DNA from: Ignavibacteriales bacterium
GTDB taxonomy: Bacteria > Bacillota > Sulfobacillia > JABLXB01
NCBI GenBank assembly: GCA_050260105.1
Contig: JBLNBR010000021.1
Location: forward strand, 46,245 to 110,244
Length of the DNA: 64,000 nucleotides
Reading direction: 5' to 3'
Positions 20,030 through 62,519 of this stretch are shown piece by piece (the stretch's first letter is position 1; the number at the start of each line of letters is the position of its first letter). The notes under the pieces are model-generated. The model saw nothing but the letters and a program-made list of their open reading frames with translations, searched no databases and had not been told where the DNA came from. Both the position numbers and the translations under genes were made by a program.

Positions 20030-20290
20030 TTACCTCGGTCCTATGATCAGTTTTATGGCCGTGCGTTCCTCTCCATCTATCTGGATATCGGTGAACGCGG
20101 GCACACAGACAAGATCGATGCCGCTGGGCGCTACGAATCCCCTGGCTATGGCGACGGCCTTTATTGCCTGGTTGATAGCGCCCGCGCCTATCGCCTGCAT
20201 CTCGGCTGAGCCCCGCTCTCTGATGACTCCCGCCAGGGCCCCGGCGACGGCGTTCGGGCTCGACTTGGACGAAACCTTGAGCACTTCAAC
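20030..20290 (-). CDS. spoVS: stage V sporulation protein S
   Basis: VLKVSSKSSPNAVAGALAGVIRERGSAEMQAIGAGAINQAIKAVAIARGFVAPSGIDLVCVPAFTDIQIDGEERTAIKLII is near-identical in pattern to Bacillus SpoVS. A GTG start gives 86 aa. Confidence 0.85.
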   Translation of the reverse strand, partial: VEVLKVSSKSSPNAVAGALAGVIRERGSAEMQAIGAGAINQAIKAVAIARGFVAPSGIDLVCVPAFTDIQIDGEERTAIKLIIGPR

Positions 20291-20430
20291 CACCGATGCT
20301 CTTCCCCCTCTTATAACGAGAACTGCTGGTCTTATGCTTAGGGTTCGGGCCAACGCGCGCACGTCAGATGCCTGAGTTTTATATTACTACCATATTCTGC
20401 ATCTTGCAAGCTCCACGGCCCCGCCGTTCT

Positions 20431-21864: not shown

Positions 21865-23403
21865 CTACTTGGCATAATCCACGGCGCGAGTCTCCCGGAT
21901 CACCGTCACCTTGATCTGTCCCGGGTATTCAAGTTCACCCTCAATCTTCTTAACGATGTCCCTTGCGAGTTTGCTTGCGGTGAGGTCGTCGATCCTTTCC
22001 GGCTTGACCATGATCCTGATCTCGCGGCCGGCCTGGATGGCATATGCCTTATCCACGCCATCGAACGAATCGGCTATCTCCTCGAGCTTCTCCAGCCGCT
22101 TGATATACGCCTCCAGCGTCTCGCGCCTGGCCCCCGGCCTCGCCGCTGACACGGCGTCGGCGGCGGTCACCAGGAACGCCTCGACGGACTTCGCCTCCAC
22201 GTCTCCGTGGTGCGCTTCCATCGCCTGTATGACGTCGTTGTTCTCCTTATACTTCTTCAACAGGTTAATCCCGATCGCCACGTGCGACCCCTCGACCTCG
22301 TGGTCCACGGCCTTGCCTATGTCGTGGAGCAGGCCGGCACGCTTCGCTACAGCAACGTCGCACCCGAGTTCCGCCGCCATGGCGCCGGCCAGGTGCGCGA
22401 CCTCGATGGAGTGTTTCAGGACGTTCTGCCCGTAGCTCGTGCGGAATTTCAGGCGTCCCAGGAGCTTGACGATCTCAGGGTGAAGCCCGTGAACCCCTGC
22501 CTCGATGCCTGCTTCCTCACCCGCCTCGCGGATCTGGGCGTCGACTTCCTTCTCGGCCTTGTCAACCATTTCCTCGATTCGTGCGGGGTGGATCCTCCCA
22601 TCGGCGATGAGCTTCTCGAGAGCCAGCCTGGCCACCTCACGCCTGATTGGGTTGAAGCCCGAGAGAATGACGGCCTCGGGGGTGTCGTCGATGATCAGGT
22701 CTACCCCTGTGAGGGTCTCGAGGGTCCGTATGTTCCTGCCCTCGCGGCCGATTATTCTGCCTTTCATCTCATCGTTCGGCAGTTCGACGACGGACACGGT
22801 CGCTTCGGCTACGTGGTCGGCGGCGCATCTCTGTACGGCAAGCGAGATGATATCCTTGGCCCTCTTCTCCGCCTCCTCCTTGGCCTGCGACTCGATGTCC
22901 CTTATCATCGCAGCCGCTTCCTGGCGGATCTCCTCCTCGGTCCTCTTGAGCAGGGCGTCCTTTGCTTGATCACTGGTCATGCCCGAGATCTTCTCGAGCT
23001 CGGCGATCTGCCTCTGCTTCAATTCGGCCACATGTTCTTGCGATTTCTCGAGTTCCTTCTCGCGCCTGCCAATCTGCTCTTCCTTGCGTTCGATGCTCTC
23101 TGTCTTCCTGTCCAGGACTTCTTCCTTCTGCATCAACCTGCGCTCGAGCCTCTGGAGTTCCGCGCGCCGCTCGCGCGTGTCCCTCTCAAAATCGCTCCGC
23201 AGGCGGTGTACCTCTTCCTTGGCCTCGACAACAGCCTCTCTCTTGCGCCCCTCCGCTTCCTTCCTCGCCTCGTCCAGTATCTTCCTGGCCGCTTCCTCCG
23301 CGGAAGCGATCTTCGCCTCGGCCAACATCTTCCTGAATAGATAACCGATCAGTATGCCGGCCACAGCACTGGCCAGGGCTATGAGCATCACATTGAACGG
23401 CAT
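21865..23403 (-). CDS. rny: ribonuclease Y
   Basis: N-terminal TM helix, coiled coil, KH domain ([15 protein letters not shown]) and HD domain (HDIGK…HH). Start at MPFNVM, preceded by SD GGGGGAGG. Confidence 0.9.
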
Positions 23404-23419
23404 CGGCGCCTTCACCTCC

Positions 23420-23455
23420 CCCATAAAAGGTCCAGCCGAGTCGGGCAGACTCGGC
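23420..23455 (-). promoter_or_regulatory. rny 5'-leader hairpin adjacent to the RBS
   Basis: Perfect 8-bp stem GCCGAGUC-ugccc-GACUCGGC followed by UGGACCUUUUAU, then SD GGGGGAGG and the start codon. It is attenuator- or terminator-like and sits in a ~170-nt leader. Confidence 0.35.
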
Positions 23456-23574
23456 GCGAATACTCAAATACATTGGTTGTCCAAAATCCGGCCATTGCCC
23501 GCCGGACAACCGCACGAATCCAGCGACAGCATATAGCAGGGTCGTAACGACCAAACCGAGAAACACCCCGACAC

Positions 23575-25218: not shown

Positions 25219-25833
25219 TCACCCTTGAAGGTTCCACTCCTCGATAGGGCTGTAGACCGGGCCCTCCGGCGTGAGACGGCTCATCATGAGGGACACCTGG
25301 TCGACTTCCATGGCGCCGAAGTCCGTCTCGCGGAGTCGCTCCACTCCGGCCTTCAGCGATCCTGACCCGGCGGGGTTCCTGACTCGACCAAGGGTAAGAT
25401 GGGGCGTGAACGCCCTTCTCTCCCCCGGGAACCCCTCCCGCGCGAGCTCCTTCTCGACGCGCGCCGCGAGGCCCGCCAGGGCATCAATCCCGTGGCTCAG
25501 GCCCACCCATACCACTCTCGGCGGGCCGCTCGACGGGAAACACCCCGCTCCCCTCAGCGACAACGTGAAGGGCGCCGCGCCCGAGACAGCCCGGCCGACT
25601 CCCCTACGGGCCGCCTCCACCCTGGGTTCAGGGATCTCACCGAGGAACTTGAGTGTGAAGTGAAGGTTCTCAATCTCCACCCATTTCACAGCCGCTGCAG
25701 ACGCCCTGAGCGCCGAAGTCCCCGATACGACCGCCGCGGCCAGCCGCGGCTCGAGAGGCACGGCCGCGAAGCACCTTATCCCCCTGTCTGCGGCGCTCAC
25801 CTGGCGCCCTCCGCGGGGGCAAGGTAGCGCCAT
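25219..25833 (-). CDS. thpR: RNA 2',3'-cyclic phosphodiesterase (2H phosphoesterase, ThpR/LigT)
   Basis: Two H-x-T/S-x motifs (HFTLKFLGE, HLTLGR). The start is either ATG 25833 or GTG 25800. Confidence 0.75.
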   Translation of the reverse strand: MALPCPRGGRQVSAADRGIRCFAAVPLEPRLAAAVVSGTSALRASAAAVKWVEIENLHFTLKFLGEIPEPRVEAARRGVGRAVSGAAPFTLSLRGAGCFPSSGPPRVVWVGLSHGIDALAGLAARVEKELAREGFPGERRAFTPHLTLGRVRNPAGSGSLKAGVERLRETDFGAMEVDQVSLMMSRLTPEGPVYSPIEEWNLQG

Positions 25834-27050
25834 AGCATCGCCAGGGCCTCCTGGGACGTTCGCCACTTGATGTTCTCTCTCGAACCCCACAGCCTGAGCA
25901 GCCTGTGCAGGCCGCCGCGGGGTCCCGCTATCGCCACGTGCACCGTCCCGACCGGCTTGTCGGTAGTGCCCCCGGAGGGGCCCGCTATCCCCGTCACGCC
26001 GATTCCGATGTCGCTGCCCGCGAAAACGCGCGCTCCCTCGGCCATCTCAGAGGCCGTCTCCTCGCTGACAGCCCCGTAACGCCGCAGTGTCGCCGGCTTC
26101 ACGCCCAGAGCCCTCATCTTCACCTCATTGCTGTATGCCATGACCCCGCCGGAGAAGTAATCAGAGCTGCCGGGTACCTGGGTGAGCCTGTGTCCTATGA
26201 GCCCGCCGGTACACGATTCCCCGAGACCCACGGTCAGGCCCAGGGACCGGAGCCTCCGCCCGGCGGCCGACTCTATGGTCTCGTCATCCGATCCAAAAAC
26301 GTAGTCGCCCACGACATCGCGGATGCGCTTTTCGGCCGGGCCTATCAGCGCCTGCGCCGCGCCGACGGACCCCGCTCTCGCCGTGAGCCGCAGGTGAACC
26401 TCGCCCGGATAGGCGTAGGGCGCCACCGTGGGGTTTGGGCCCATCGTCATGAGGTCCCTCAGCCGGTCTTCCACGGCGGATTCACCGAGCATGCACACCT
26501 TGAGTATCTTTGAATGAATGATCTCCCGGCCAGCCCCGAGATCGCGCAGGTAATCCGCGACGAACCGTTCGAACATTGGGATGAGTTCCGCCGGCGGCCC
26601 GGGAAGCATCACCACCGACTTACCGTCATGGGGGATAATCAGGCCTGGGGCGGTTCCGTTGGGGTTATCCAGCACGCGAGAACCCTCGACCACGTATGCC
26701 TGTCTCCTGTTATTGGGCGTGGGGGACCTCCCCACCCTCTGGAAGAATCCCTCTATGTCCCGCCACACCCGCTCGTCGAACACCAGGTCTCTGCCGACCG
26801 CGGCCGCGACTCCCTCCCGCGTAAGATCATCCGCGGTGGGACCGAGACCCCCCGTGGTGATCACCACGTCCGATCTGGCCAGGGCCTGTCCCAGCGCGTC
26901 CACCAGGCGGCTCTGGTTATCGCCCACGACGACCTGATGGTAAACGTTGACCCCAAGTTCCGCCAGGGCCTTGCCCAGAAACTGGGCGTTGGTGTTGGCG
27001 ATCTGCCCGAGCAACAATTCCGTTCCCACGGACACGATTTCGGCGATCAT
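25797..27050 (-). CDS. cinA: competence/damage-inducible protein CinA (MocF-like N-terminus plus nicotinamide-nucleotide amidase domain)
   Basis: MIAEIVSVGTELLLGQIANTNAQFL N-terminus and a C-terminal CinA domain. Gene order is cinA-thpR-recA. The ORF is open to 27065. Confidence 0.85.
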   Translation of the reverse strand: MIAEIVSVGTELLLGQIANTNAQFLGKALAELGVNVYHQVVVGDNQSRLVDALGQALARSDVVITTGGLGPTADDLTREGVAAAVGRDLVFDERVWRDIEGFFQRVGRSPTPNNRRQAYVVEGSRVLDNPNGTAPGLIIPHDGKSVVMLPGPPAELIPMFERFVADYLRDLGAGREIIHSKILKVCMLGESAVEDRLRDLMTMGPNPTVAPYAYPGEVHLRLTARAGSVGAAQALIGPAEKRIRDVVGDYVFGSDDETIESAAGRRLRSLGLTVGLGESCTGGLIGHRLTQVPGSSDYFSGGVMAYSNEVKMRALGVKPATLRRYGAVSEETASEMAEGARVFAGSDIGIGVTGIAGPSGGTTDKPVGTVHVAIAGPRGGLHRLLRLWGSRENIKWRTSQEALAMLWRYLAPAEGAR

Positions 27051-27175
27051 TTCCCGGATACGCACCCTCCAGGCGCGTGGGCTGACTTGCCCGCGCCCCC
27101 ATCAGGCATATCGTTTCGCGGCCCCGTGGCCTTATTCCTCTACCGCAGGGCGACCCGGCCCTGGAAAGCCCGGGG

Positions 27176-28723
27176 TCAGCCCGCCTTGAGCCGCCTGCCG
27201 CGTCTCACGCGAAGCCTCTGCAGGACCGCCGGCGGCAACGAACTCTCCTTCGCGGCCGTTCTCCCTGTTATCGCGGCGAGCGCCGCCGAATCCATCCTCT
27301 CGTTCCTGAGGAGGCACTCGCTCACGGCGTCTACCTGCCGCGCGCGAGCGGCCAGCAATCCCTTCACTCGCTTCTCTTGATCCGCTACTGTCTGGGCGAT
27401 CGCCCGCGCGAGTATATCGCCTGGAAGCGAGTGGGGATCCACGATGCCCAGCGGCGACATTCCCGACAGCACTATCTTGCGCGCAATCTCGACAGCCCTG
27501 TCGAAATCCTCCGCTGCGCCTGTACTGCGGGAGCCGCATACCATCTCCTCCGCCAGCGCCCCCGCTATGAGTGATGCGATCTCGTCCTCGAGATGCTCCT
27601 TCGCGTAGATGTATTGCTCGCTCTTCGGGGTGCTGCGCACGTAGCCCAGCGCTCCCCCTCTCGGTGAAATGGTTATCGAAGCCACGGAGCCGGGCCTCAG
27701 GCATTCGCCGACGATCGCGTGCCCCGCCTCGTGTACCGCTATCCTCCGGAGATCCTCATTTGACGGCCTGCGCTCGATCTTCTCCCCTAGGATGACCTTT
27801 TCGATCGCGTCCTCGAGGTGGCGTTGCTCGATCTCGTGCACGCCCTCCCTCATGGCAAGGATCGCTGCCTCGTTGGCGAGGCTCTCGAGGTGCGCGCCGG
27901 TGAACCCGAACGTTCCGCGCGCTATCCGGTCGAGGTCCACGCCCTTCGCCAGGGGCTTGTTTCTGGTGTGCAGTTCGAGGATTTGCAGGCGCGCCTCCCT
28001 GTCGGGCACCTCCACGCGGACCACCCTGTCGAACCGGCCGGGCCTCGTGAGGGCGGGATCGAGCAGGTCAGCCCTGTTTGTGGCCGCTATCACGAGGATC
28101 CGCACATCGTCCCCCACCGAAAGCCCGTCCATCTCCACGAGCAGCTGGTTTATGGTCTGATCGTACTCGAGATGACCGACATTGTGCCCTCGCCTGCCGC
28201 CGAGCACCTCGATCTCGTCAATGAAGATGATGGCCCCCTTCTTGCCGGAGTTCTTGGCCATCTCCCGGGCGTTCCTGAACAATTCACGCACCCGCTGCGC
28301 TCCCACGCCGGCGTACACCTCTACGAACTCACTCCCGCTGGTGGCCACGAACACCGAATCTACGTAGTTTGCGGCCGCCTTGGCGAGCATGGTCTTCCCC
28401 GTGCCGGGCGGGCCCGTGAGCAGAAGTCCCTTGAGCGGCCGTATGCCGAGCCTGGTCATCGCCTGCCTTAGCTTGATGAAGTCGAGCGCTTCGAGCAGTT
28501 CCTTCTTGGCTGATGACTGGCCGCCGATATCCTTGAAGGTCACCGGCGACACGCTCCCCGGGGTCACCGGCGCGAACCGCTTCGTGAGACCTCTCAGGCC
28601 TGATGTCTGGACCAGCACATATGCGAGGGCGCCGAGGAACACGACGGGAAGCACGTTCACCCCGGCGATGGCCAGGTATATCAGTGCGCCGGCCAGGGTT
28701 CCAATGGCTATCTCCTTCCACAT
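27176..28723 (-). CDS. short-form FtsH-like AAA+ zinc metalloprotease (two closely spaced TM helices, no periplasmic domain)
   Basis: Walker A GPPGTGKT, second region of homology, and HEAGHAIV zinc site with a downstream AEDFDRA. At 515 aa it is ~100 aa shorter than canonical FtsH. Confidence 0.8.
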   Translation of the reverse strand: MWKEIAIGTLAGALIYLAIAGVNVLPVVFLGALAYVLVQTSGLRGLTKRFAPVTPGSVSPVTFKDIGGQSSAKKELLEALDFIKLRQAMTRLGIRPLKGLLLTGPPGTGKTMLAKAAANYVDSVFVATSGSEFVEVYAGVGAQRVRELFRNAREMAKNSGKKGAIIFIDEIEVLGGRRGHNVGHLEYDQTINQLLVEMDGLSVGDDVRILVIAATNRADLLDPALTRPGRFDRVVRVEVPDREARLQILELHTRNKPLAKGVDLDRIARGTFGFTGAHLESLANEAAILAMREGVHEIEQRHLEDAIEKVILGEKIERRPSNEDLRRIAVHEAGHAIVGECLRPGSVASITISPRGGALGYVRSTPKSEQYIYAKEHLEDEIASLIAGALAEEMVCGSRSTGAAEDFDRAVEIARKIVLSGMSPLGIVDPHSLPGDILARAIAQTVADQEKRVKGLLAARARQVDAVSECLLRNERMDSAALAAITGRTAAKESSLPPAVLQRLRVRRGRRLKAG

Positions 28724-28729
28724 GTCAGA

Positions 28730-29305
28730 TCACACCCCCGTTGGGCTACCGCGGTACTCTGCCGGCCTTGGCAGGACCTCGTAGAGATAATGCCCGTTGA
28801 GATGCAGTTGGACGTAGACACTGCTATCGCCAACGAACACCCTATGGCGATCCAGCCCCGCCTCCTTGGCGAGTCGCGCCACCTCGGCGGACATGCCGGA
28901 GAACCTTCCCGTGACAAGCGCCTCCTGGATATGGAAGTGCATCGAATAGTACGCGTCCGAGAGCGCCTCGTCCCGAGAGTCTTCGACGACGACCTTGACA
29001 TCCTGGCCCTTTAAGACTTCTTCCGCGCTGTCCTCAAGGCCGCTGACCGTCTCGTGCAGATCCGGCACGTCTCCCAGCTTCACCCGGACGACTGTGACGG
29101 GCTTCCTCTTCAGCACGGTATAAGAGAGGACGGACGGTGATTGCCTGAACACCTTGTCCAGGGGCTCGCCGACCGTGAACCTGCCGTAGAGCAGGTTGCC
29201 CAGGTACAGCACGGCGAAACTGACTGCTATGCTGGCCACCACCGCGGCCACCTGTCTTGGATTGGGTCTCACCCTCACACCAGCTCCACGCAATGGCATA
29301 GTCAA
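28730..29305 (-). CDS. hypothetical membrane-anchored protein (N-terminal TM helix, ~150-aa extracytoplasmic domain)
   Basis: VAAVVASIAVSFAVLYLGNLLY is a TM helix followed by a charged globular region. The ORF ends 7 nt before the FtsH-like start. The likely start is an internal GTG/ATG a few codons in. Confidence 0.5.
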   Translation of the reverse strand: MTMPLRGAGVRVRPNPRQVAAVVASIAVSFAVLYLGNLLYGRFTVGEPLDKVFRQSPSVLSYTVLKRKPVTVVRVKLGDVPDLHETVSGLEDSAEEVLKGQDVKVVVEDSRDEALSDAYYSMHFHIQEALVTGRFSGMSAEVARLAKEAGLDRHRVFVGDSSVYVQLHLNGHYLYEVLPRPAEYRGSPTGV

Positions 29306-29338
29306 AAGAAATCAACAGTCCAGAACACAGACTGTTGA
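29301..29338 (-). terminator. intrinsic-terminator-like hairpin between rimO and the downstream membrane-protein gene
   Basis: On the minus strand: UCAACAGUC-uguguucug-GACUGUUGA (9-bp perfect stem) followed by UUUCUUUUG. It lies in a ~95-nt AT-rich island. Confidence 0.5.
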
Positions 29339-29399
29339 CATAAGTATATCAGAGTGGATTATTTATGGACACCCGCAACCCCCAGGCAATCCCTGGCGG

Positions 29400-30719
29400 T
29401 CAGGCCAGCGTAGCCCAGAGATCGTACGCTGAAACGCGCGTCACGAGGCCGGTGACGAAACACCCCGGCGCCAGGCCTTCCCCCCTGACCCTCACGACAC
29501 CATCCACCCCGGGGGCGTCCCTGTACGTGCGGCCGACCCACCGGCTTCTCCCGGCCCGCCCCTCGATGAGGATCTCGATCTTCGAGCCGATTAGTCCCTG
29601 GTTGATCTCCCTCGATATCCCCTTCTGCAGCTCCATCGCCCTGCGAAACCTTTCCCTCTTCACCCGAGGAGGCACCTGTGGCTTCATGGCCGACGCCGGC
29701 GTGCCTTCCTCGCTCGAATAGGCGAATACGCCGGCCCTGTCGAACCGTGCCGCCATCATGAACGCCAGCAGTTCCTCGAAATCCCCTTCTCCCTCACCCG
29801 GGAATCCCACCATGAAGGTGGTCCTGATCGCGATGCCCGGGACCGCCGCTCTGAGATTCCGCACCGCGCGCAGGGCGGCGGCCGAGTCGTGGGACCTGTT
29901 CATGCCGCGGAGAATCCTATCGGAGGCGTGCTGGACCGGCATGTCTATGTACCGGCAGACCCGCGGCTCGGACGCCATCACGTCGATCAGCTCGTCGGAT
30001 ATCCTCGAAGGGTAACAGTACATCAGCCTGATCCACCGCAGGCCGCCGGCGCTCGAGATCATCTTTATCAGAGCGGGCAGCCGGGCCTCCCCATACAGGT
30101 CCATCCCGTATGCGGTGGAATCCTGAGCCACCAGCACCACTTCTCTGACCCCGGACGTCGCCAGTCTCTCTGATTCCCTCACGAGTTCCTCCAGCGGCCT
30201 CGATCGGAGGGCCCCTCGTATTGCGGGGATCGCGCAGTATGAACACCTGTTGGAACATCCGTCGGCTATCCGCAGATACGCGGTATGTGGCATGGTAAGG
30301 GGGAATCTGGGGAGCGGCCGGGCCGCCGGATCCCCTGTGGACCAGCGTGGCGGCCTCGAGAACCGCGCCAGGCGTTCGCCGCGGAGGGTGCGGTCCACTA
30401 CGTCCACGATGTTGACGACTTCGCCGATCCCGATCATACTGTCTATCTCCGGCATGTGCCGGAGGAGTTCTTCCCGGTATCTCTCGGACAGGCACCCGGC
30501 CACTATCAACGCACGGCACCTGCCCGTCGCCTTATGCTCAGCCATCTCCAGTATGGTGTCGATCGACTCTCGCTTCGCAGCCTCGATGAAACCGCAGGTG
30601 TTTATCAGCAACGCGTCAGCCTCCGCGGCCTCCGCGGTTATTTCGTATCCGGCTTCCGCCAGTAGCCCGAGCATGTTTTCCGAGTCAACGAGGTTCTTGG
30701 AGCACCCCAGGGACGCCAT
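29400..30719 (-). CDS. rimO: ribosomal protein S12 methylthiotransferase
   Basis: MASLGCSKNLVDSE N-terminus, radical SAM CSNRCSYC and TRAM domain. The ORF is open to 30779. Confidence 0.85.
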   Translation of the reverse strand: MASLGCSKNLVDSENMLGLLAEAGYEITAEAAEADALLINTCGFIEAAKRESIDTILEMAEHKATGRCRALIVAGCLSERYREELLRHMPEIDSMIGIGEVVNIVDVVDRTLRGERLARFSRPPRWSTGDPAARPLPRFPLTMPHTAYLRIADGCSNRCSYCAIPAIRGALRSRPLEELVRESERLATSGVREVVLVAQDSTAYGMDLYGEARLPALIKMISSAGGLRWIRLMYCYPSRISDELIDVMASEPRVCRYIDMPVQHASDRILRGMNRSHDSAAALRAVRNLRAAVPGIAIRTTFMVGFPGEGEGDFEELLAFMMAARFDRAGVFAYSSEEGTPASAMKPQVPPRVKRERFRRAMELQKGISREINQGLIGSKIEILIEGRAGRSRWVGRTYRDAPGVDGVVRVRGEGLAPGCFVTGLVTRVSAYDLWATLA

Positions 30720-30929
30720 TCCCACTTTCGCCAAGTCTTCATCCACCCCCGTGCGCCTGACCGCGGGATCATTACCCACAGATCATATTGCCGGAATACG
30801 CGCGTGTAAAGGGAGCACCCTGCGCGGAGGAGGGATTCACCGGTAACCGGATAATGGATACTGTGCCGGGACAGTCCGCCGGCTCAATGACTCAATACAT
30901 CCTGCTTCACGGGGGTTAGGGGTGGGACC

Positions 30930-32114
30930 ATGGTAAGCGCCGCCGAGTTCGAGTCCTTGCAGCGCGACATAGTCGAGTGGAGGAGGGAGGTGCACCGCAG
31001 GCCCGAGACGGGGATGCATCTCCCGGAGACTACGGCGTTCGTCAAGCGCGTGATGTCCGAGATCGGTGTGAGGGATCTCGGGGCACGCACGGGGGTGGTC
31101 GGCCTCATCGAGGGGGCCCGGCAGGGGAAATGCATAGCAATACGGGCGGACATGGATGCGCTTCCGGTTCAGGAGGACACCGGCCTCCCGTTCGCCTCGG
31201 AGAAACCGGGCGCCATGCATGCCTGCGGCCACGACGCTCACGTGGCGATGGCGCTCGGCGCCGCGAAAATACTCGCCGGTCGCAGCGAGACCCTGGCCGG
31301 TTCGGTCAAGTTCATATTCGAGCCGGACGAGGAGGTCTCCGGTGGCGCCCTCCCCATGATCCGCGAGGGAGTGCTCGAGAACCCGGCCGTGGGCGCCATC
31401 CTGGCATGCCATGTCGGGAACATCTGGCCGGAAGCGAGGACGTCCGGCGCCATCGGGGTCCGGTTTGGGACAATGATGGCCTCTTGCGACGACCTCACGA
31501 TCAGGATCAGGGGCAAGGGCGGTCACGGCGCCATGCCCCATCTCGCGGTGGATCCGGTGCTCGTCGCGGGCCATGTGATCACCGCTCTGCAGAGCATCGT
31601 CAGCCGCGAGGTCAAACCGACCGCCTCTGGTGTCGTCACCATCGGAAAGATCAGCGGCGGCTTCGCGAGGAACGTAATAGCCCCGGAGGTGCTCATGGAG
31701 GGGACGATCCGCGCCCTGGACCCCACCACCCGGGACCTGCTCTGCAACCGTACGGGAGAGATAGCCAGGTCAGTGGCCGCTGCGCTGAGGGCCGAGGCCG
31801 ATGCCAAAGTCAACAGGGGCTACCCGCCGGCGATCAACGACCACGGCTTCACTGGATTCTTCCAGGGGGTGGCTGAGAGGCTCTTTGGGGGCGACTTCGT
31901 TCGCGAAATCCCGGAGTCTTCCATGGGCGCCGAGAGCATGGCGTACTTCCTGGAAAGGGTGCCGGGAACCCTCTTCGGCCTCGGGACCCAATCGGACGAC
32001 GTCCGCACGGCCTATCCCCACCACAACCCGAGATTCGACATTGACGAAGGGGTGCTCTGGAAGGGCGCAGTGGCGATGGCAGAGACCGCAGTAGCCTGGC
32101 TCGCGGAGGCATGA
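30930..32114 (+). CDS. M20D-family amidohydrolase (N-acyl-L-amino acid amidohydrolase / hippurate hydrolase type)
   Basis: HACGHDAH metal site and typical M20D length and motifs. Confidence 0.8.
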   Translation: MVSAAEFESLQRDIVEWRREVHRRPETGMHLPETTAFVKRVMSEIGVRDLGARTGVVGLIEGARQGKCIAIRADMDALPVQEDTGLPFASEKPGAMHACGHDAHVAMALGAAKILAGRSETLAGSVKFIFEPDEEVSGGALPMIREGVLENPAVGAILACHVGNIWPEARTSGAIGVRFGTMMASCDDLTIRIRGKGGHGAMPHLAVDPVLVAGHVITALQSIVSREVKPTASGVVTIGKISGGFARNVIAPEVLMEGTIRALDPTTRDLLCNRTGEIARSVAAALRAEADAKVNRGYPPAINDHGFTGFFQGVAERLFGGDFVREIPESSMGAESMAYFLERVPGTLFGLGTQSDDVRTAYPHHNPRFDIDEGVLWKGAVAMAETAVAWLAEA

Positions 32115-32198
32115 CGCACCGGGAGACAGGGGCGGCGGGGAGAGACTTCCGGGACGCGACCCGCGGGGCCCGGCGCTGAGCCGGGCCTCCGCTTCCCC

Positions 32199-33503
32199 CT
32201 AACCTATCAGCGCCAGCACAGAATCCAGGAGGACTTGTACCCCACGCTCCACGTCCCCGGGAGTGGTGTACTCCTCCGGGCAGTGGCTCCGCCCCTTGAC
32301 ACTGGGTACGAACACCATACCGACCGGTGCGATCATCGCGAGCATGCATGAATCGTGCACCGCTCCGCTATACATATCCATCCACGAGAACCCGCGCCGC
32401 TGCGCCGCATCCCGTATTGTAGAGGTGAACTCCCCGGAGCAGGACACGGGATCGCTCGCCGAGCGGGGCGATATCTTCGCCTCCAGGCCGCGCCCCCCGG
32501 CGATTTCACGAATGAGTCCCTCCACTCTCTCGAGGTGGCGTGGAAGGTGCTCTCCGCAGGGGTCCCTGAGGTCGACGGTGAACCGTACCATCCCCGGAAT
32601 TACGTTTGGCACGTTCGGGGACACGGAAACCCATCCCAGCGTTAGGACGGTAGCGGGCCCCATCTCTCGCTTCGCCGTGTGCTCGAGCCGGACGGCCGCC
32701 TCCGCCATGCAGGCCAGCGCGTCTCTCCGCCCCTGCATGGGGGTCGCCCCCGCGTGGTTCGCGGTCCCCCGGATCTCGACGTCGATCTGGCGTATGCCTG
32801 CTATCCCTTCGACAACGCCTATCGAGACCCCGGCGCCGTCGAGAACGGTTCCCTGCTCGATGTGGAGTTGCAGCATCCCGAGGATCGCCCCCGTCTCCAG
32901 GCGCCCTGGCAGCAGTCTCTCCCCCTCCGTGACGTTCCGCAGGGCCTCCCCGTATGTGATCCCGTCGCTGTCCCTCAGGGACAGCAGCTCGGCCTCTTTC
33001 GCCCGGCCGCTCAGCCCGCAGCTCCCGACCGTCCCGGCGCCGAATCTGAAGCCTTCCTCCTCCGCGAAAATGACCACCTCTAGCGACCTCGCAATCCGGA
33101 TGCCGGCCTCGTGGATGCACCTGGCCGCCTCTATCGCGCCGATTGAACCCACGACGCCGTCGAAAGCGCCGCCATGGGGCACCGAGTCTATGTGAGATCC
33201 GGCGACTAGAGGCGGAAGACCCGGTTCGCGCCCCTCCAGGCTGCCGTGGATGTTGCCCCACTGGTCGGTGACCACCCTCAGCCCGGCCTCCCTCATCCTC
33301 GCGGCCACGTAGCGGCGAGCCATGACGTCCTCTCTTGAGAAGGTCAGTCTCGTCACTCCGGCCCCCGGAGTGGCTGTGTATCCCGCCAGGGTCTGTATGT
33401 CGTTCCAGATCCTCTCTCCATTGACGCGCACGTCGAGCACTTCGCGCACCTCTCCTCGAAGAATCGTCCCGGACCCCGCCCCCGGGGCGTAGGCCCGCCA
33501 CAT
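32199..33503 (-). CDS. Zn-dependent N-carbamoyl-L-amino-acid hydrolase / allantoate amidohydrolase family (M20, AmaB-like)
   Basis: GSHIDSVPHGGAFDG, EEEGFRFG and HAG motifs of the AmaB/AllC family. Start at MWRAY (33503); the ORF is open to 33572. Confidence 0.8.
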   Translation of the reverse strand: MWRAYAPGAGSGTILRGEVREVLDVRVNGERIWNDIQTLAGYTATPGAGVTRLTFSREDVMARRYVAARMREAGLRVVTDQWGNIHGSLEGREPGLPPLVAGSHIDSVPHGGAFDGVVGSIGAIEAARCIHEAGIRIARSLEVVIFAEEEGFRFGAGTVGSCGLSGRAKEAELLSLRDSDGITYGEALRNVTEGERLLPGRLETGAILGMLQLHIEQGTVLDGAGVSIGVVEGIAGIRQIDVEIRGTANHAGATPMQGRRDALACMAEAAVRLEHTAKREMGPATVLTLGWVSVSPNVPNVIPGMVRFTVDLRDPCGEHLPRHLERVEGLIREIAGGRGLEAKISPRSASDPVSCSGEFTSTIRDAAQRRGFSWMDMYSGAVHDSCMLAMIAPVGMVFVPSVKGRSHCPEEYTTPGDVERGVQVLLDSVLALIG

Positions 33504-33511
33504 CTGCCTTG

Positions 33512-34906
33512 CTAGCGCTGTCTCGCTACCGCGCGGCCGGGCAACCTCCCCGTCACGTTGCCCTTCCAGCATACCACCTCGCCGGCGGCCATGACCCCGG
33601 TGAGGCCGTGCGGCGGGCGCCCCGGTTCGTCGTAGGTGGCCGCATCGGTGAGTGTCCCGGGGTCGATCAGCAGCAGGTCGGCGTCCGCTCCTTCCATCAC
33701 TCTGCCCTTGCGAGTGAGGCCCAGTCTTCGCGCCGGAACCGAGGTCATCTTCGCTAGAGCCTCAACGAATCCGAGTAGGCCGTCCCTTACGAACCTGCCC
33801 AGCACGCGCGGGAACGTCCCGGAAGTCCGGGGATGCCCCCTCCCCTCCCGCATCAGGCCGTCACTCCCGACCATGACCAGTGGATGCCGGAGAGCGAGTG
33901 TCACCTCGTCTTCACGCATGACGAACGCCACAACGAGCGAGTCAGGATGATCCCGGCGGGTTTCCTCGAAGGTCTCCCGCGTGCACCTCGTGCCGGCGTG
34001 AGGACCACCAGCCAGGAGCAGGGAGTCGTACCCCACGCCCCACCTTTCGAGGCATCCGGGATCGAACACGGCTGAGCCGATGAAGGTGCAGAAGGCCTCG
34101 TACGGATAGCAGTCGGCCATCACGTCCACGCCGGCGGCCTGTGCCTCCTCCAGCACAGCCAGTGCAGCCGCCATGTTCCCAAAGGCCGCGCAGCTGTTGA
34201 TGTGAGACACCTGGAACGGCACACCCGTCTCGCGCCCGACCTCCACGAGTTCCCGGACGGCCTCTACGGCCCTGTCGCAGTCGTACCGGTAGTGCGCGGC
34301 GAGGAGTGACCCGGGGTACCCCGACACTACACTCGCCACCGCGATCATCTCCTCCGTGGTGGCGCCGGGGGTGTATTCGAGGCCGAACGATACCCCCAAC
34401 GCGCCAGCGTCCATGGCCCTCCTCACCATGTCGCGCATCCGCGCAATCTCAGCGGGCGATGCGGGGCCGTACACGTCGGCGACCCCAGCCGCCTCGCGCA
34501 GCCTGCCGTGTGCGGCGAGCATGCCGTAGTTGAGGGGGGCCCCGTGTTTCCCGATCCAGCCGAGGAACGAGGGGACGTCCTCGCCGATGCCGCAGTTGCC
34601 GCCGATTGCCGTGGTTACCCCCATCCTGGCGTAGTTGTACGCGGAATCCCATTTCACCCCTGCCGAGGGGTCAACAGGGTCCTCGTGGGCGTGAATGTCC
34701 ACGAAACCGGGGACGAGGGTCAGCCCATCGCCCACCAGCAGCTCGCGGCTGGGCGGCTTCGGCTCACCAATGTAAGCGATGGAACCCCGTTCAATCCCGA
34801 CGTTCCGCACCCCGAGCGGCCCTGTCTCCGGGTCCACCACGTGAACGCCCGTTATCAGGGTATCCAGCAAATGACTTCCCCCTCTCGTGATAGAGACCTG
34901 GTGCAC
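33512..34906 (-). CDS. N-acyl-D-amino-acid deacylase (D-aminoacylase, amidohydrolase superfamily)
   Basis: DIHAHED metal motif and the D-aminoacylase hallmark HPRTSGTFPRVLGRFVRD. The N-terminus is uncertain: the ORF is open to 35056, and a GTG near 34906 fits family length. Confidence 0.75.
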   Translation of the reverse strand: MHQVSITRGGSHLLDTLITGVHVVDPETGPLGVRNVGIERGSIAYIGEPKPPSRELLVGDGLTLVPGFVDIHAHEDPVDPSAGVKWDSAYNYARMGVTTAIGGNCGIGEDVPSFLGWIGKHGAPLNYGMLAAHGRLREAAGVADVYGPASPAEIARMRDMVRRAMDAGALGVSFGLEYTPGATTEEMIAVASVVSGYPGSLLAAHYRYDCDRAVEAVRELVEVGRETGVPFQVSHINSCAAFGNMAAALAVLEEAQAAGVDVMADCYPYEAFCTFIGSAVFDPGCLERWGVGYDSLLLAGGPHAGTRCTRETFEETRRDHPDSLVVAFVMREDEVTLALRHPLVMVGSDGLMREGRGHPRTSGTFPRVLGRFVRDGLLGFVEALAKMTSVPARRLGLTRKGRVMEGADADLLLIDPGTLTDAATYDEPGRPPHGLTGVMAAGEVVCWKGNVTGRLPGRAVARQR

Positions 34907-36443: not shown

Positions 36444-37670
36444 CTACTCACCCCCTTCGCAGAAAAGGCCCGCGGTCAGGGCGTACACCCTTGACGCGGC
36501 CACCAGCTGCTCCACGTCCACCCATTCGACCCGGGAATGGGCGCATCCGAGGGATCCGGGCCCGAACACAACAGTTGGAATGCCGGCGTGGACTGCGAGG
36601 AATCCCCCGTCGCTCCACGCCGGGAACGCCACGACCGGCGGTTTCGAGCCAGTCACCTCCCCCGCGGCCCTCGACAGGCACGTAACGACGGGGTCATCCA
36701 GGGGCGTCGCGAACGCGAGGTGATCCATCGTCGCCTGACTCGAGGGGATCCTGGCGATGTCCGCCGAGAAATCTGGGTCTTCCTCGGACAGGCGCCTGAA
36801 TATGTCGCGGAAATCGCCCCAGATGGTCTCGCTGGTTTCCGCCGGGGTGGACCGGCGGTCAATCTGAATGCGGCATTCGCCGGCGACTGTGCTGGGTTGG
36901 GTCCCCCCGTCGATCACACCGAAATTCAGCCTCGGGTGACCCAGCAGCTGGTGACCCCTTGACTCAAACCGCGGCACGATTTCCTCCTCGACGGCCCGGA
37001 TGAACTTCGCGGCCTTGGAGATCGCGTTAATCCCCTTTTCCATCTCCCCACTGTGCGCCGCCCTACCCCTAATGGTGACCTCCAGCCAGTCTAGGCCCCG
37101 GTGCCCCGCAGCGAGCCTCAAGTCCGTGGGCTCGCCGACCACGGCGCCATCCGCCTGGATACCCTGCCTGATCACGTGTTCGGTACCCTCACCGCGGAAC
37201 TCTTCATCTATGACGGCGGTGAGTACGATATCGCCGGCCAGCCGGACTCTGGAACGCTTGACGGCGACCATCGCAACCATCATAGCGGCCAGGGCCCCCT
37301 TCATGTCCACCGATCCACGGCCGTAGAGTCTTCCCTCTCTGACCTCGCCGCCGAAGGGATCGATGTCCATCTCGTACGGGGGCACGGTGTCCATGTGGCC
37401 GTTGAACATGAGGGTGCGCCCGCCACCGGAACCCGTGAGCCGGCAAACGACATTGGGCCGTCCATCCGCGGTCACGGGGTCCAGGAAGGTCTCGAACCCC
37501 TCACCCGCCATGAACGCGTTGATGAAGTGAGCGACTTCGGTTTCCACCCCCGGATAGCCGGGATGGCTGGGGATCCTTACGAGGTCGCGGGTAAGCGTGA
37601 CGAGCATGTCTTCGTTTACGAACCGGGCCACGAACTCGGCCGGTCGTCCACTCTCGCGGCCTTCAGTCAT
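36444..37670 (-). CDS. M20-family metallopeptidase (ArgE/DapE/acetylornithine deacetylase-like)
   Basis: NGHMDTVPP, GRGSVDMKG and EE metal-binding pattern. Confidence 0.8.
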   Translation of the reverse strand: MTEGRESGRPAEFVARFVNEDMLVTLTRDLVRIPSHPGYPGVETEVAHFINAFMAGEGFETFLDPVTADGRPNVVCRLTGSGGGRTLMFNGHMDTVPPYEMDIDPFGGEVREGRLYGRGSVDMKGALAAMMVAMVAVKRSRVRLAGDIVLTAVIDEEFRGEGTEHVIRQGIQADGAVVGEPTDLRLAAGHRGLDWLEVTIRGRAAHSGEMEKGINAISKAAKFIRAVEEEIVPRFESRGHQLLGHPRLNFGVIDGGTQPSTVAGECRIQIDRRSTPAETSETIWGDFRDIFRRLSEEDPDFSADIARIPSSQATMDHLAFATPLDDPVVTCLSRAAGEVTGSKPPVVAFPAWSDGGFLAVHAGIPTVVFGPGSLGCAHSRVEWVDVEQLVAASRVYALTAGLFCEGGE

Positions 37671-37705
37671 CCGGCATGGCTCCCTCCCATTTAGGGCGCA
37701 TCACA

Positions 37706-59332: not shown

Positions 59333-61609
59333 TCACACGCCGTCCTGGCCGAAAATGCGCTGGTATTCCTGGAATGTCAGGCGTACCTCGCGGGGCTTCG
59401 AACCCTCGTACGGGCCGACGAAACCCCTCTCCTCCATCGCGTCTATGAGCCTTGCGGCGCGGGCGTAGCCTATCGGCAGTTTTCGCTGCAGAAGGGACAC
59501 GGACGCCTGGCCCGCCTCAACGACGATCTTGACTGCCTGCGGGAAGAGATCGTCGGCCCCTTCCTGCCGGTTGCCCGATTCCTGCTCCGGCTCGGTCACT
59601 ATCTCCTCGTACCTCGGTCCGCCCTGCTCCCGCACGAAGTTTACCACTCGCTCGACCTCGCGCTCGTTTATGTAGGCCCCCTGCGCGCGCACCGCCTTTG
59701 TGGCGCCCACGGGGAAGAACAGCATGTCCCCTTTGCCCACGAGCTTCTCAGCGCCGGCCGCGTCGAGTATGGTCCTCGAATCTATCTGGCTCGAAACGGT
59801 GAACGCTATCCTCGACGGGATGTTGGCCTTGATTGTGCCCGTCACCACGTCGACGGAAGGCCTCTGCGTGGCCACCACGAGGTGTATCCCCGACGCGCGG
59901 GCCATCTGGGCGAGCCTGAATATGGCGTCCTCCACGTCCACGGGCGCGACCATCATGAGGTCACTCAGCTCGTCTATCACGACAACGATGAAAGGCAGCC
60001 GCTCCTCCCCGAGCGCCGCGGCCGCCTGATTATACTTGGCGATGTCCCTGACGCCCGCGCTGACGAACGTCTGGTACCGCTTCTCCATTTCCCTCACGAC
60101 CCACCGGAGGGCGCCCGCCGCCTTCTTCGGGTCGGTAACGACGGGGGCAACCAGGTGGGGTATCCCGTCGTACACGCTGAGTTCCACCATCTTGGGGTCA
60201 ACGAGAAGCATCTTGACCTCATCCGGCTTGGACTTGAACAGGATGCTGGTGATTATGGAGTTGATGCACACGCTCTTGCCGGAACCCGTGGCCCCCGCGA
60301 TGAGCACGTGGAGCATCTTCTCGAGCGTGGAGACTATGGGTCTCCCGGCGATGTCCTTGCCCAGGGCCACCGTCAGGTTGGAGGGTGACTCCTTGAATTC
60401 CTTCGTGTCGAGCACATCCCTGAGGTGGACCAGGGTGACTTCTGTGTTGGGGACCTCGATCCCCACCGCCGATTTCCCGGGAATCGGGGCCTCTATCCTC
60501 ACGTCCTGGGCCGCCAGGTTCAGCGCTATGTCGTTGGCAAGGCTGGTGATGCTGGCAACCTTGACACCGGGGCCCGGCTGGAGTTCGAATCTGGTCACGG
60601 CGGGACCGCGGCTCACCTGAACTACCTTCGCTTGCACCCCGAAGCTCTGGAGGGTCTCTTCAAGGGTCTTCGCCCTGTCCTCGATGTCCCTGTCCGGCCT
60701 CAAGGCTTTCGGCCTTCCCTGCTGCCTGTCCAGGAGCGAAAGCGGCGGGATCTCATAGGGGCCGTGCGTGCTGAGGGTCAATTGCTCGGGCGCAGCCGCG
60801 CCACCCTCGCCCCCGGTCGCCCTTGCCTGCCTGGACGCCCTCCTCGATGCCCTTGACAGCGGGATAACGACTCCGGCGCCGTCTCCAGGACGCGTCTCCG
60901 CCGCCGCATCCACACAGGGGGGTTGGCCGCCACCGGTCTGCACGGCCGCCGGGGCCACTGCCGGAGCCTTCTCAACCGCATCACCCACGGTGCACGCCGC
61001 TTCGCCCTCATCAGACAGGTCCGCCGCTTCGTAGAAGAAATCCTCCATGGACCGCTTCAAAGAGGTGACGCACAACCTGATCCCCTTCACCACGGCCCCC
61101 GCGATCTTCCCCGGCGACGCGTTGGCCACCAGGCTCACCGCGACGACCCCCGCAATAACGGCGGCGACCCACAGCCCCGACTGCCCGAAGCCCTTCCTCA
61201 GCAGGACCGCGAGAACCGCACCGATCACGCCGCCGCCGTACCCCCTTCCAGCGTTCACGTACTCCGTCCCAGGCTCGATCGAGGAGTGAAGCACCAGGGC
61301 CGCGTCCAGAACGGCGACGATCGCGCCCGCCGTCCTCGGGGTAAACGGCGGCAACCTCCTGCGGACCATGATGAATACACCCAGAGCCGCCGGGCCCGCG
61401 GGGATGAGCGGGGCCATGTCCCCAAGCAGGACCCTGCACGACCTCACGAGGGCATCGCTCACGATGCCGCTGGCCTCGCCCAGAAACGACATTACCAGCA
61501 ACACACCGAGGCCGACCAGGGCCAGCCCGGCGGCCTCGTATTTCAAATCCCGCTGTACCTTCCCAAGGAATTCGCGCAACGGCGCCACCTCACGAGAAGC
61601 CCGGCTCAT
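59333..61609 (-). CDS. ftsK: DNA translocase FtsK/SpoIIIE
   Basis: Four N-terminal TM helices, a long Pro/Ala linker, motor domain (Walker A GATGSGKS) and a gamma wHTH. Convergent with ldt with only a 6-nt gap. Confidence 0.9.
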
Positions 61610-61670
61610 CCGCGCCTTACGCTGGCGCTTACCATCTACCGGGTTCGCCACGCGGGGGTGAACTCCTCCC

Positions 61671-62519
61671 TCACCTGGCATACATTCCCATCCACAGCGC
61701 GACCGCCCCCGCCGCCCAGCAGTAGTACGCGAAGGATTTCAGCCCGCCCTTCCGCAGCAGGCCGATCAGGTACCGGAGGGCGACGGTGCCCGATACGAAC
61801 GCCACGATCGCCACGATCGCGAGCGCGGCAAGCGGCGCTTCCTCCGTTCCGGCGGCCCCGGTGATATCCACGGCTGCGTTCAGGTAATCCCGCACGCCGA
61901 GGAGGGCGGCGCCGGCGGTCGCGGGGATCGAGAGGAGGAACGAGAAGCGCGCCGCCTCCTCGCCGCGTAACCCCGAGGCCAGACCCGCGGAGATGGTCAT
62001 GCCGGATCGGGACACACCGGGCGCGATGGCCAGGGCCTGCGACACGCCCACGATAAATGCCCTCCCCGGGCCCATCTCACTCGTGGAAAGCCCCCTCGCC
62101 TGCCGCCTCCCCCCACTTCCCCGTCCGGACACGAACAGCACGAAACCGGTGAGGAGCAGCCCCAGGCCGGCGAACACGGGGCTCTCGAACATCCTTTCGA
62201 ACGCGTCTTTCCACACGATGCCGGCCACCCCAGCCGGGATTGAGCCCAACAGCACGAAGGCAGCCGCCCTGAACCCGGGGCGCCGCCTCCCCCCGGCGCT
62301 GACAAGGCCCGACAGGAAACCCACGGCAAGGCTTATCGCATCCCCGCCGTATACTGTCAGGACGGCCGCGAGCGTGCCGAGGTGAGCCGCGACCTCGATC
62401 CCTATTCCCGCGGAATGCAGGTTGAAGAGACCCTGCGCGATCACGAGGTGGCCCGAACTCGACACGGGGAGGAACTCGGTGATCCCCTGCACGAGTCCAA
62501 GGACAATCCAGCTGATCAA
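61671..62519 (-). CDS. uppP: undecaprenyl-diphosphatase
   Basis: BacA N-terminus [27 protein letters not shown] start 10 nt after RBS AAGGAGG. The ORF track 5' extension is junk. Confidence 0.85.

Follow-up and report, generated by a model that had tools for sequence, protein, structure and literature searches.

The window analyzed here, a stretch of DNA 64 kb in length with a GC content of ~64%, contains a pair of minus-strand genes that form the subject of this report. The downstream gene (27176..28723) encodes a 515-residue membrane AAA+ zinc metalloprotease, a short paralog of FtsH, and was defined by its open reading frame (ORF), Pfam and NCBIfam matches, alignment and structural modelling. 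Directly before it lies a gene (28730..29278) for a 182-residue single-pass membrane protein, referred to below as the partner. A first-pass annotation of this DNA had singled out both ORFs on this strand, the membrane protein preceding the protease, and both exist. FtsH is, to our knowledge, the only membrane-anchored AAA+ protease of bacteria, and how substrate choice is controlled by its extracytoplasmic part and by accessory proteins is still debated.

The protease matches Pfam AAA (127 bits), AAA_lid_3 and Peptidase_M41 (99.6 bits against a cut-off of 29.9) in that order on one chain, the broad architecture of M41/AAA proteases. The AAA+ module with its lid occupies residues 100–304 (27812..28426, minus strand; Pfam, alignment) and the M41 domain residues 321–486 (27266..27763, minus strand; Pfam, alignment, AlphaFold2 (AF2), superposition). 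In an alignment of 24 relatives, which share 56–74% identity with the window protein, the GPPGTGKT Walker A motif, the DEIE Walker B motif, the pore loop Y137-A-G and the arginine fingers are invariant, as are the second region of homology (ATNR...RPGRFDR) and the zinc-site residues H331, E332, H335 and D406, the last being the Asp of AEDFDR (both 24/24). The window protein itself carries GPPGTGKT, IFIDEIE, VYAG and, as its second region of homology, ATNRADLLDPALTRPGRFDR; its HEAGH zinc motif lies at 27733..27719 (minus strand), with the Asp in AAEDFDR as third ligand. These matches and invariant residues bear out the earlier claim that the 515-residue protein keeps all FtsH catalytic motifs, and it is predicted to be a catalytically competent FtsH-type AAA+ zinc protease.

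The same data separate this protein from housekeeping FtsH. It scores 426.1 bits against the NCBIfam model TIGR01241 (FtsH_fam), below the equivalog cut-off of 600, and is therefore a paralog; against NF008004 it scores 286, where the cut-off is 1008. Canonical FtsH of the TIGR01241 type, as in E. coli, T. maritima and B. subtilis, has the same membrane-anchored, hexameric-type AAA+ plus M41 organization with all catalytic motifs, and solved cytosolic regions share 39–43% identity with the window protein. The modelled AAA+/M41 body superimposes on the solved cytosolic regions of the T. maritima and A. aeolicus enzymes with TM scores of 0.83–0.87. Within the AAA+ module, however, the window family carries a motif of its own, H.EYDQT.NQ, at the position where canonical FtsH has EREQT.

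A second difference lies at the N-terminus. Alignment, comparison of N-termini and the AF2 model place a transmembrane hairpin at residues 2–39 (28607..28720, minus strand). Among the 24 relatives this region reads M-x-K-E, a hydrophobic helix, a G-x-N/D-x-x-P turn of ~5 residues, a second helix and an Arg-rich stretch, with G8, G21 and P26 invariant. The AF2 model (pLDDT 80.7) contains helices at residues 2–19 and 25–39 (pLDDT 83–87) connected through a loop of 5 residues and followed by a disordered linker and the complete AAA+/M41 body. No FtsH_ext match was found by Pfam, and the extracytoplasmic domain of ~70–100 residues that canonical FtsH carries between its transmembrane helices is absent. 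In a phmmer alignment residue 16 pairs with residue 111 of full-length T. maritima FtsH, and the N-terminus is therefore ~95 residues shorter, close to the ~100 estimated in the first-pass annotation. Its description of two adjacent helices with essentially no periplasmic domain also agrees with the model, in which the protease is predicted to be anchored by a tight hairpin that exposes almost nothing outside the cell.

For the partner, the first-start ORF runs from TTG 29305 and gives the 191 residues originally reported. A GGAG ribosome-binding site (29284..29287, minus strand) lies 5 nucleotides upstream of GTG 29278, the block GGAGCTGGTGTG is invariant in three relatives, and homologs begin at the equivalent position. 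Together these observations favor GTG 29278 as the most likely start, rather than TTG 29305, and a length that is probably 182 residues (MRVRPNPRQ...). The protein so defined has a basic N-terminal tail, a transmembrane helix at residues ~10–32, an alpha/beta domain of ~140 residues that is predicted to be extracytoplasmic, and a Gly-rich tail.

A word-indexed search with the partner returned five close relatives. A profile search of 1.84 billion representatives returned 647 cluster representatives at E ≤ 0.001, essentially all of them 165–200 residues long. The family conserves the basic tail, a single transmembrane helix with a small-residue motif, a juxtamembrane P-L and the Gly-rich tail, and within the domain the motifs D-x-R...L..AYY..HF..QEA.ATG.F and YLYEV.PR; D100, R102, E119, G124 and R171 are invariant. 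The earlier statement that the protein has no recognizable motifs holds: four diverse members gave no Pfam or NCBIfam match down to E = 0.1–1, no SPFH/Band-7 domain among them, PADLOC gave none, and profile searches of PDB sequences gave none. The AF2 model (pLDDT 88.5) consists of a long transmembrane helix, a beta-beta-alpha-beta unit, two helices and a three-stranded sheet, and a Foldseek search with it returned nothing at E ≤ 0.001 and no convincing structural relative. Comparison with ectodomains of ring-building-motif and ferredoxin-like type (SpoIIIAH, EscJ/PrgK, YhcN) and with the C-terminal domains of CDF transporters gave scores in the generic-fold range at 9–17% identity, and many unrelated ferredoxin-like domains score as high against the partner as SpoIIIAH, EscJ/PrgK and YhcN. 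An origin of the partner by gene fission, as the detached first transmembrane helix and periplasmic domain of an FtsH, was considered and found no support: the partner has no similarity to the FtsH N-terminal region.

The orientation of the partner was assessed from charges flanking its transmembrane helix. Averaged over 42 homologs, the N-terminal flank carries +3.1/−0.3 and the C-terminal flank +2.1/−1.5. By the positive-inside rule an N-in/C-out arrangement is therefore favored, and the partner is predicted to be a type II membrane protein with a cytoplasmic tail of only ~8–10 residues.

To follow the two genes across genomes, one genome per species (GTDB) was scanned for a degenerate DNA pattern encoding the protease-specific stretch H.EYDQT.NQ.L.EMDG, which yielded at least 120 loci, and hidden Markov models of the partner and protease families were run on six-frame ORFs of these listed loci. 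In eight of 120 the DNA ends within 100 nucleotides of the protease ORF, and these were uninformative. Among the matches listed, all 112 informative loci, from different Bacillota species, carry the partner directly upstream and on the same strand (E = 5e-9 to 2e-59). The pair was likewise present in all nine neighborhoods that were inspected, whether the protease or the partner served as the starting point. Three diverse protease homologs, from Desulfoscipio gibsoniae, a metagenome-assembled genome (MAG) and Symbiobacterium, each have a Pfam-less gene of 181–188 residues directly upstream, and neighborhoods started from partner proteins had the protease downstream every time.

Adjacency persists while the surroundings change. 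A rimO/pgsA or cinA/recA neighborhood accompanies the pair in only 72 of 120 listed loci; elsewhere it follows a TseB/PepSY-like gene and precedes dnaD, or stands beside a relA-like gene, and in Symbiobacterium it is kept although the flanking genes are unrelated. In Paenibacillaceae and Alicyclobacillaceae it follows a TseB/PepSY-like membrane protein, with dnaD after the pair in the Paenibacillus locus examined. This second small single-pass membrane protein stands directly before the partner in Bacilli that carry the pair (L013, 2066–2569; L022, 1947–2522; L008, 6501–7025, minus strand; and other Paenibacillaceae and Alicyclobacillaceae). It gave a TseB-like match in one locus, a sub-threshold PepSY match in a second and no match in a third; two loci have SurE further upstream. 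This small membrane protein may be a lineage-specific third component.

The junction between the two genes is tight. Their start and stop codons overlap in ~60% of loci, and the commonest junctions among 108 listed loci are −8 nucleotides (26 loci), −4 (23) and −1 (5), a predominance of overlaps that indicates translational coupling. In the window the genes are in frame and separated by 6 nucleotides (28729..28724), not the 7 given previously. No fusion of partner and protease was found in the 112 listed loci, as expected from predicted topologies that put the partner C-terminus outside and the protease N-terminus inside. On the minus strand at 28724–28732, TGA and two codons separate the two same-frame genes of the window, and one change in the stop codon would fuse them.

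We also compared pairwise distance matrices. Partner and protease distances correlate with r = 0.73–0.78, a value reached in 0 of 500 permutations, and the partial correlation stays at 0.53–0.64 when rimO or cinA is controlled for; the partial correlation of the partner with these controls, given the protease, is 0.10–0.21. Mean p-distance is 0.76 for the partner and 0.45 for the protease. This co-variation beyond that with neighboring genes is soft evidence that points in the same direction as the pairing.

Taken together, the 112 listed informative loci, the codon overlap and the changing flanks strongly support the proposal, made in the first-pass annotation, of a protease with a dedicated partner gene. 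Both of the findings that it had said would speak against the pairing were looked for, and neither turned up: no known family matches the partner, and related genomes do carry the pair. What the data establish is a gene pair that is obligate, co-translated and co-evolving, in which an active-looking FtsH paralog without an ectodomain is joined to a membrane protein that is mostly ectodomain. Since the partner is always directly upstream in many Bacillota, the two proteins almost certainly work together.

The upstream region of the pair is also conserved. A sigma-A type extended −10 (−16 region) element, TGATATACT, lies at 29343..29351 (minus strand), and 86 of 102 loci (~85%) from very distant Bacillota have the form T(A/G)TGnTATA(A/C)T ahead of the partner gene, with conservation in close relatives. 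Upstream of the 102 partner genes TG(A/T/C)TATA(A/C)T is enriched, the three TGNTATA variants occurring 34, 35 and 17 times against ~1–2 expected for each. The preferred context is T(A/G)TG, giving the consensus TRTGnTATAAT, and the element stands 30–120 nucleotides before the partner start codon. T(A/G)TG together with a −10 box corresponds to the "−16 region" and −10 of Gram-positive sigma-A promoters, and the conserved element lacks a canonical −35 at 17 nucleotides. A sporulation-sigma promoter was rejected, as k-mer and positional analysis gave only the sigma-A −16/−10 element. Partner and protease are thus predicted, from these sequence signals, to share one sigma-A-driven transcript. 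Promoter conservation of this strength is unusual for a gene without known function. A conserved-looking block (T.CCA / ATTTC) ~24–36 nucleotides before the TG may represent the 3′ terminus of the preceding coding sequence.

Two further landmarks of the upstream region are a box, TTATGTNAAC, and a hairpin. The box, TTATGTCAAC in the window (29334..29343, minus strand), abuts the −10 element and occurs once in the 64 kb; in its general form, TTATGT[ACT]AAC, it touches the −10 or comes after it in the window and in its two closest relatives. It occurs in 15 of 102 loci, where 1.1 would be expected, ~13-fold over shuffled sequences, and TTATGTCAAC is invariant in loci L003 (5390–5400) and L126. 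In 11 of 13 measured distances the box lies 1–21 nucleotides downstream of the −10 and in two it lies upstream; three of the 15 loci are without a strict −10. L077 and L081 carry TTATGT[ACT]AAC(T) as a direct repeat with 13-nucleotide spacing. The box may be an operator for some regulator or part of the initial transcribed sequence.

Between the promoter and the start codon, an intrinsic-terminator-like hairpin with a T-tract (29301..29339, minus strand; 11 bp, 7-nucleotide loop) was evaluated as 29339..29311 plus the T-tract, with a free energy of −14.2 kcal/mol and a z-score of −3.1. Hairpin and T-tract are conserved in L126; L003 keeps a 5-bp remnant and no T-tract. No Rfam match was obtained for the hairpin or leader. 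The hairpin begins ~4 nucleotides after the −10 element and is therefore in the leader of the pair's own transcript, where it would also be able to stop read-through from rimO. The first-pass annotation had placed the pair behind a terminator-like hairpin downstream of rimO. That hairpin is real, but the wording is misleading for a structure downstream of the pair's own −10, and it could be a 5′-terminal stabilizing stem-loop or a leader attenuator, not only a rimO terminator.

What, then, does the partner do for the protease? On balance, and with moderate confidence, we favor a model in which the two genes encode two subunits of one membrane AAA+ protease. The complex would be a stable hetero-oligomer, the partner docking through its transmembrane helix and contributing an extracytoplasmic module. 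The partner would bind the protease by helix packing, for which the conserved Gly and Pro residues of the protease hairpin and the small-residue motif and juxtamembrane P-L of the partner are suited. It would bring to the complex its only extracytoplasmic domain of appreciable size, and this domain might serve as an assembly, regulatory or substrate-selecting element in the degradation of membrane proteins. The suggestion made earlier, that the partner replaces the FtsH periplasmic domain in trans, is topologically attractive and has no supporting homology.

Several points weigh against this model. The topology of the partner is derived solely from the positive-inside rule, and both shared rate variation and saturation are able to raise mirror-tree correlations artificially, the mean partner p-distance being 0.76. 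Tight operon coupling would be expected equally of a dedicated substrate or inhibitor. SpoVM and YccA act in this way on canonical FtsH, and the partner could be a substrate or antagonist whose regulated destruction or binding sets protease activity or relays an extracytoplasmic signal. Obligate synteny and co-expression fit such a role equally, sequence change is far more rapid in the partner than in the protease, and the external domain of the partner could sense a signal. We nonetheless regard this as unlikely. In published work, E. coli FtsH required ~20 residues to start degrading a membrane substrate, and by this analogy the ~8–10-residue tail of the partner would be a poor initiation site, which we counted in favor of a subunit. 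Architecture and length are uniform over the 647 representatives and the folded domain is well conserved, with invariant residues, a pattern more typical of a structural partner than of a protein that serves to carry a degron. These arguments are not decisive. Less likely still is a shared pathway without contact, in which, for example, the partner handles an envelope component and the protease breaks down the membrane enzymes concerned with it. Conserved operons require no physical contact, but frequent start/stop overlap, unbroken adjacency despite changing flanks, co-variation exceeding that with neighboring genes, and complementary architectures, one protein lacking an ectodomain and the other supplying one, all argue for closer association.

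A separate question, compatible with the two-subunit model, is whether the pair serves as a sporulation-specific protease. Garcia et al. (2021; PMC8136486) describe Firmicutes-specific FtsH paralogs, FtsH(P1) and FtsH(P2), from phylogenomics, and propose FtsH(P2) as a sporulation protease on the basis of an evolutionary and phyletic pattern resembling that of SpoIID. FtsH(P1) and FtsH(P2) are at most candidates for the window family; an upstream partner protein, pgsA and cinA all go without mention in the main text of that paper (PMC8136486). All named hosts among the matches listed come from Bacillota lineages that form endospores (Thermoanaerobacterales, Desulfotomaculia, Desulfosporosinus, Moorella, Sulfobacillus, Symbiobacterium, Limnochordales, Paenibacillaceae, Alicyclobacillaceae and Thermoactinomycetaceae), and spoVS is nearby in the window. 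The conserved promoter, however, is of the housekeeping sigma-A −16/−10 type and not of the sigma-E, -F, -G or -K type. Bacillus and Clostridium, although species-rich, are absent from the matches listed; this is only suggestive, and would place the pair outside the universal sporulation core. Syntrophomonas, Thermosyntropha and Tepidanaerobacter are also among the hosts, and several of these have been described as non-sporulating. A sporulation-specific role is thus possible but rather doubtful.

Comparison with better-known systems places the two-subunit model in context. The short FtsH is always preceded by the partner gene and lies in a rimO/pgsA–cinA context, whereas canonical ftsH lies in a tilS–hprT–ftsH context. 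As in FtsH–HflK/HflC, with its SPFH cage, and mitochondrial m-AAA–prohibitin, an FtsH-type protease would be associated with dedicated single-pass membrane proteins, in this case by prediction. HflK/HflC and prohibitin have their bulk on the far side of the membrane and modulate substrate access. The partner differs from HflK/HflC in lacking SPFH/Band-7 and in its size (~180 residues against their 330–420), and hflKC is not known to be translationally coupled to ftsH. The separate membrane-anchored adaptors Mgr1/Mgr3 of Yme1 (i-AAA) and LapB (YciM) of E. coli FtsH are alike by analogy only: they have no sequence or fold relationship to the partner and sit on the catalytic-domain side of the membrane. 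In Yme1, too, the membrane and ectodomain part is reduced. An anti-phage defence function (Iet and similar systems) was rejected, as the protease shows only generic AAA likeness to IetA (102 bits), far under its FtsH scores, the partner has no PADLOC match, and the gene context is housekeeping.

Full-text literature searches returned no description of the partner–protease pair, and the sole link they gave was the remark on FtsH(P1/P2) in PMC8136486. What appears to be new here is an FtsH-type protease with a dedicated, separately encoded, putative ectodomain subunit whose fold is unassigned. The module would be naturally "split", its catalytic chain without an ectodomain and a strictly co-inherited membrane protein predicted to carry one, and this arrangement is conserved from Thermoanaerobacterales to Paenibacillus. 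Two genes under one promoter offer a simple genetic system for asking what an ectodomain does for an FtsH-type protease. Databases label the partner "hypothetical protein" and the protease "AAA family ATPase" or "FtsH", and several hundred such hypothetical proteins gain a working hypothesis. If the link to spore formers is true, the pair is a candidate for the poorly known non-Bacillus sporulation or envelope toolkit. More tentatively, and as something we hold possible rather than probable, the family could be an ancient, Bacillota-wide two-component FtsH whose extracytoplasmic module became, or always was, a separate, fast-evolving subunit of undescribed fold, forming a ring above a hexamer that lacks a periplasmic domain and gating or selecting membrane substrates from outside, possibly in envelope remodelling during differentiation.

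The gene order of the window is the classical Bacillota ftsK...rimO-(pgsA)-cinA-recA-rny-spoVS neighborhood, with all of the following on the minus strand: ftsK upstream (61738..59333), rimO (30779..29400), cinA (27065..25797), a LigT/ThpR-like ORF (25890..25219), rny (23463..21865) and spoVS (20383..20030), with recA and recX between the LigT/ThpR-like gene and rny. This order points to a high-GC Bacillota genome as the source, although the database entry for the identical protease bears the label "Ignavibacteriales". Taken from its first possible start, the LigT/ThpR-like ORF shares 94 nucleotides with the 3′ end of cinA (25797–25890, minus strand); Pfam's best stretch in it begins at residue 61, and its true start is probably further downstream. 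Just upstream of rimO, at 30930–33761 and 36444–37700, are three genes for M20/M28-family peptidases or amidohydrolases and a DcuC-type carrier, and in the relatives L003 and L126 rimO is flanked by a comparable M20 gene and by an amidase/GH18 pair. Finally, some MAGs with the pair are labelled "Ignavibacteriales" (P0006, whose protease is 100% identical), "Chloroflexota" or "Desulfovibrio sp." (L071 and L081). The gene content and synteny of these contigs are typical of Bacillota, and the three are therefore probably mis-binned or mislabelled.

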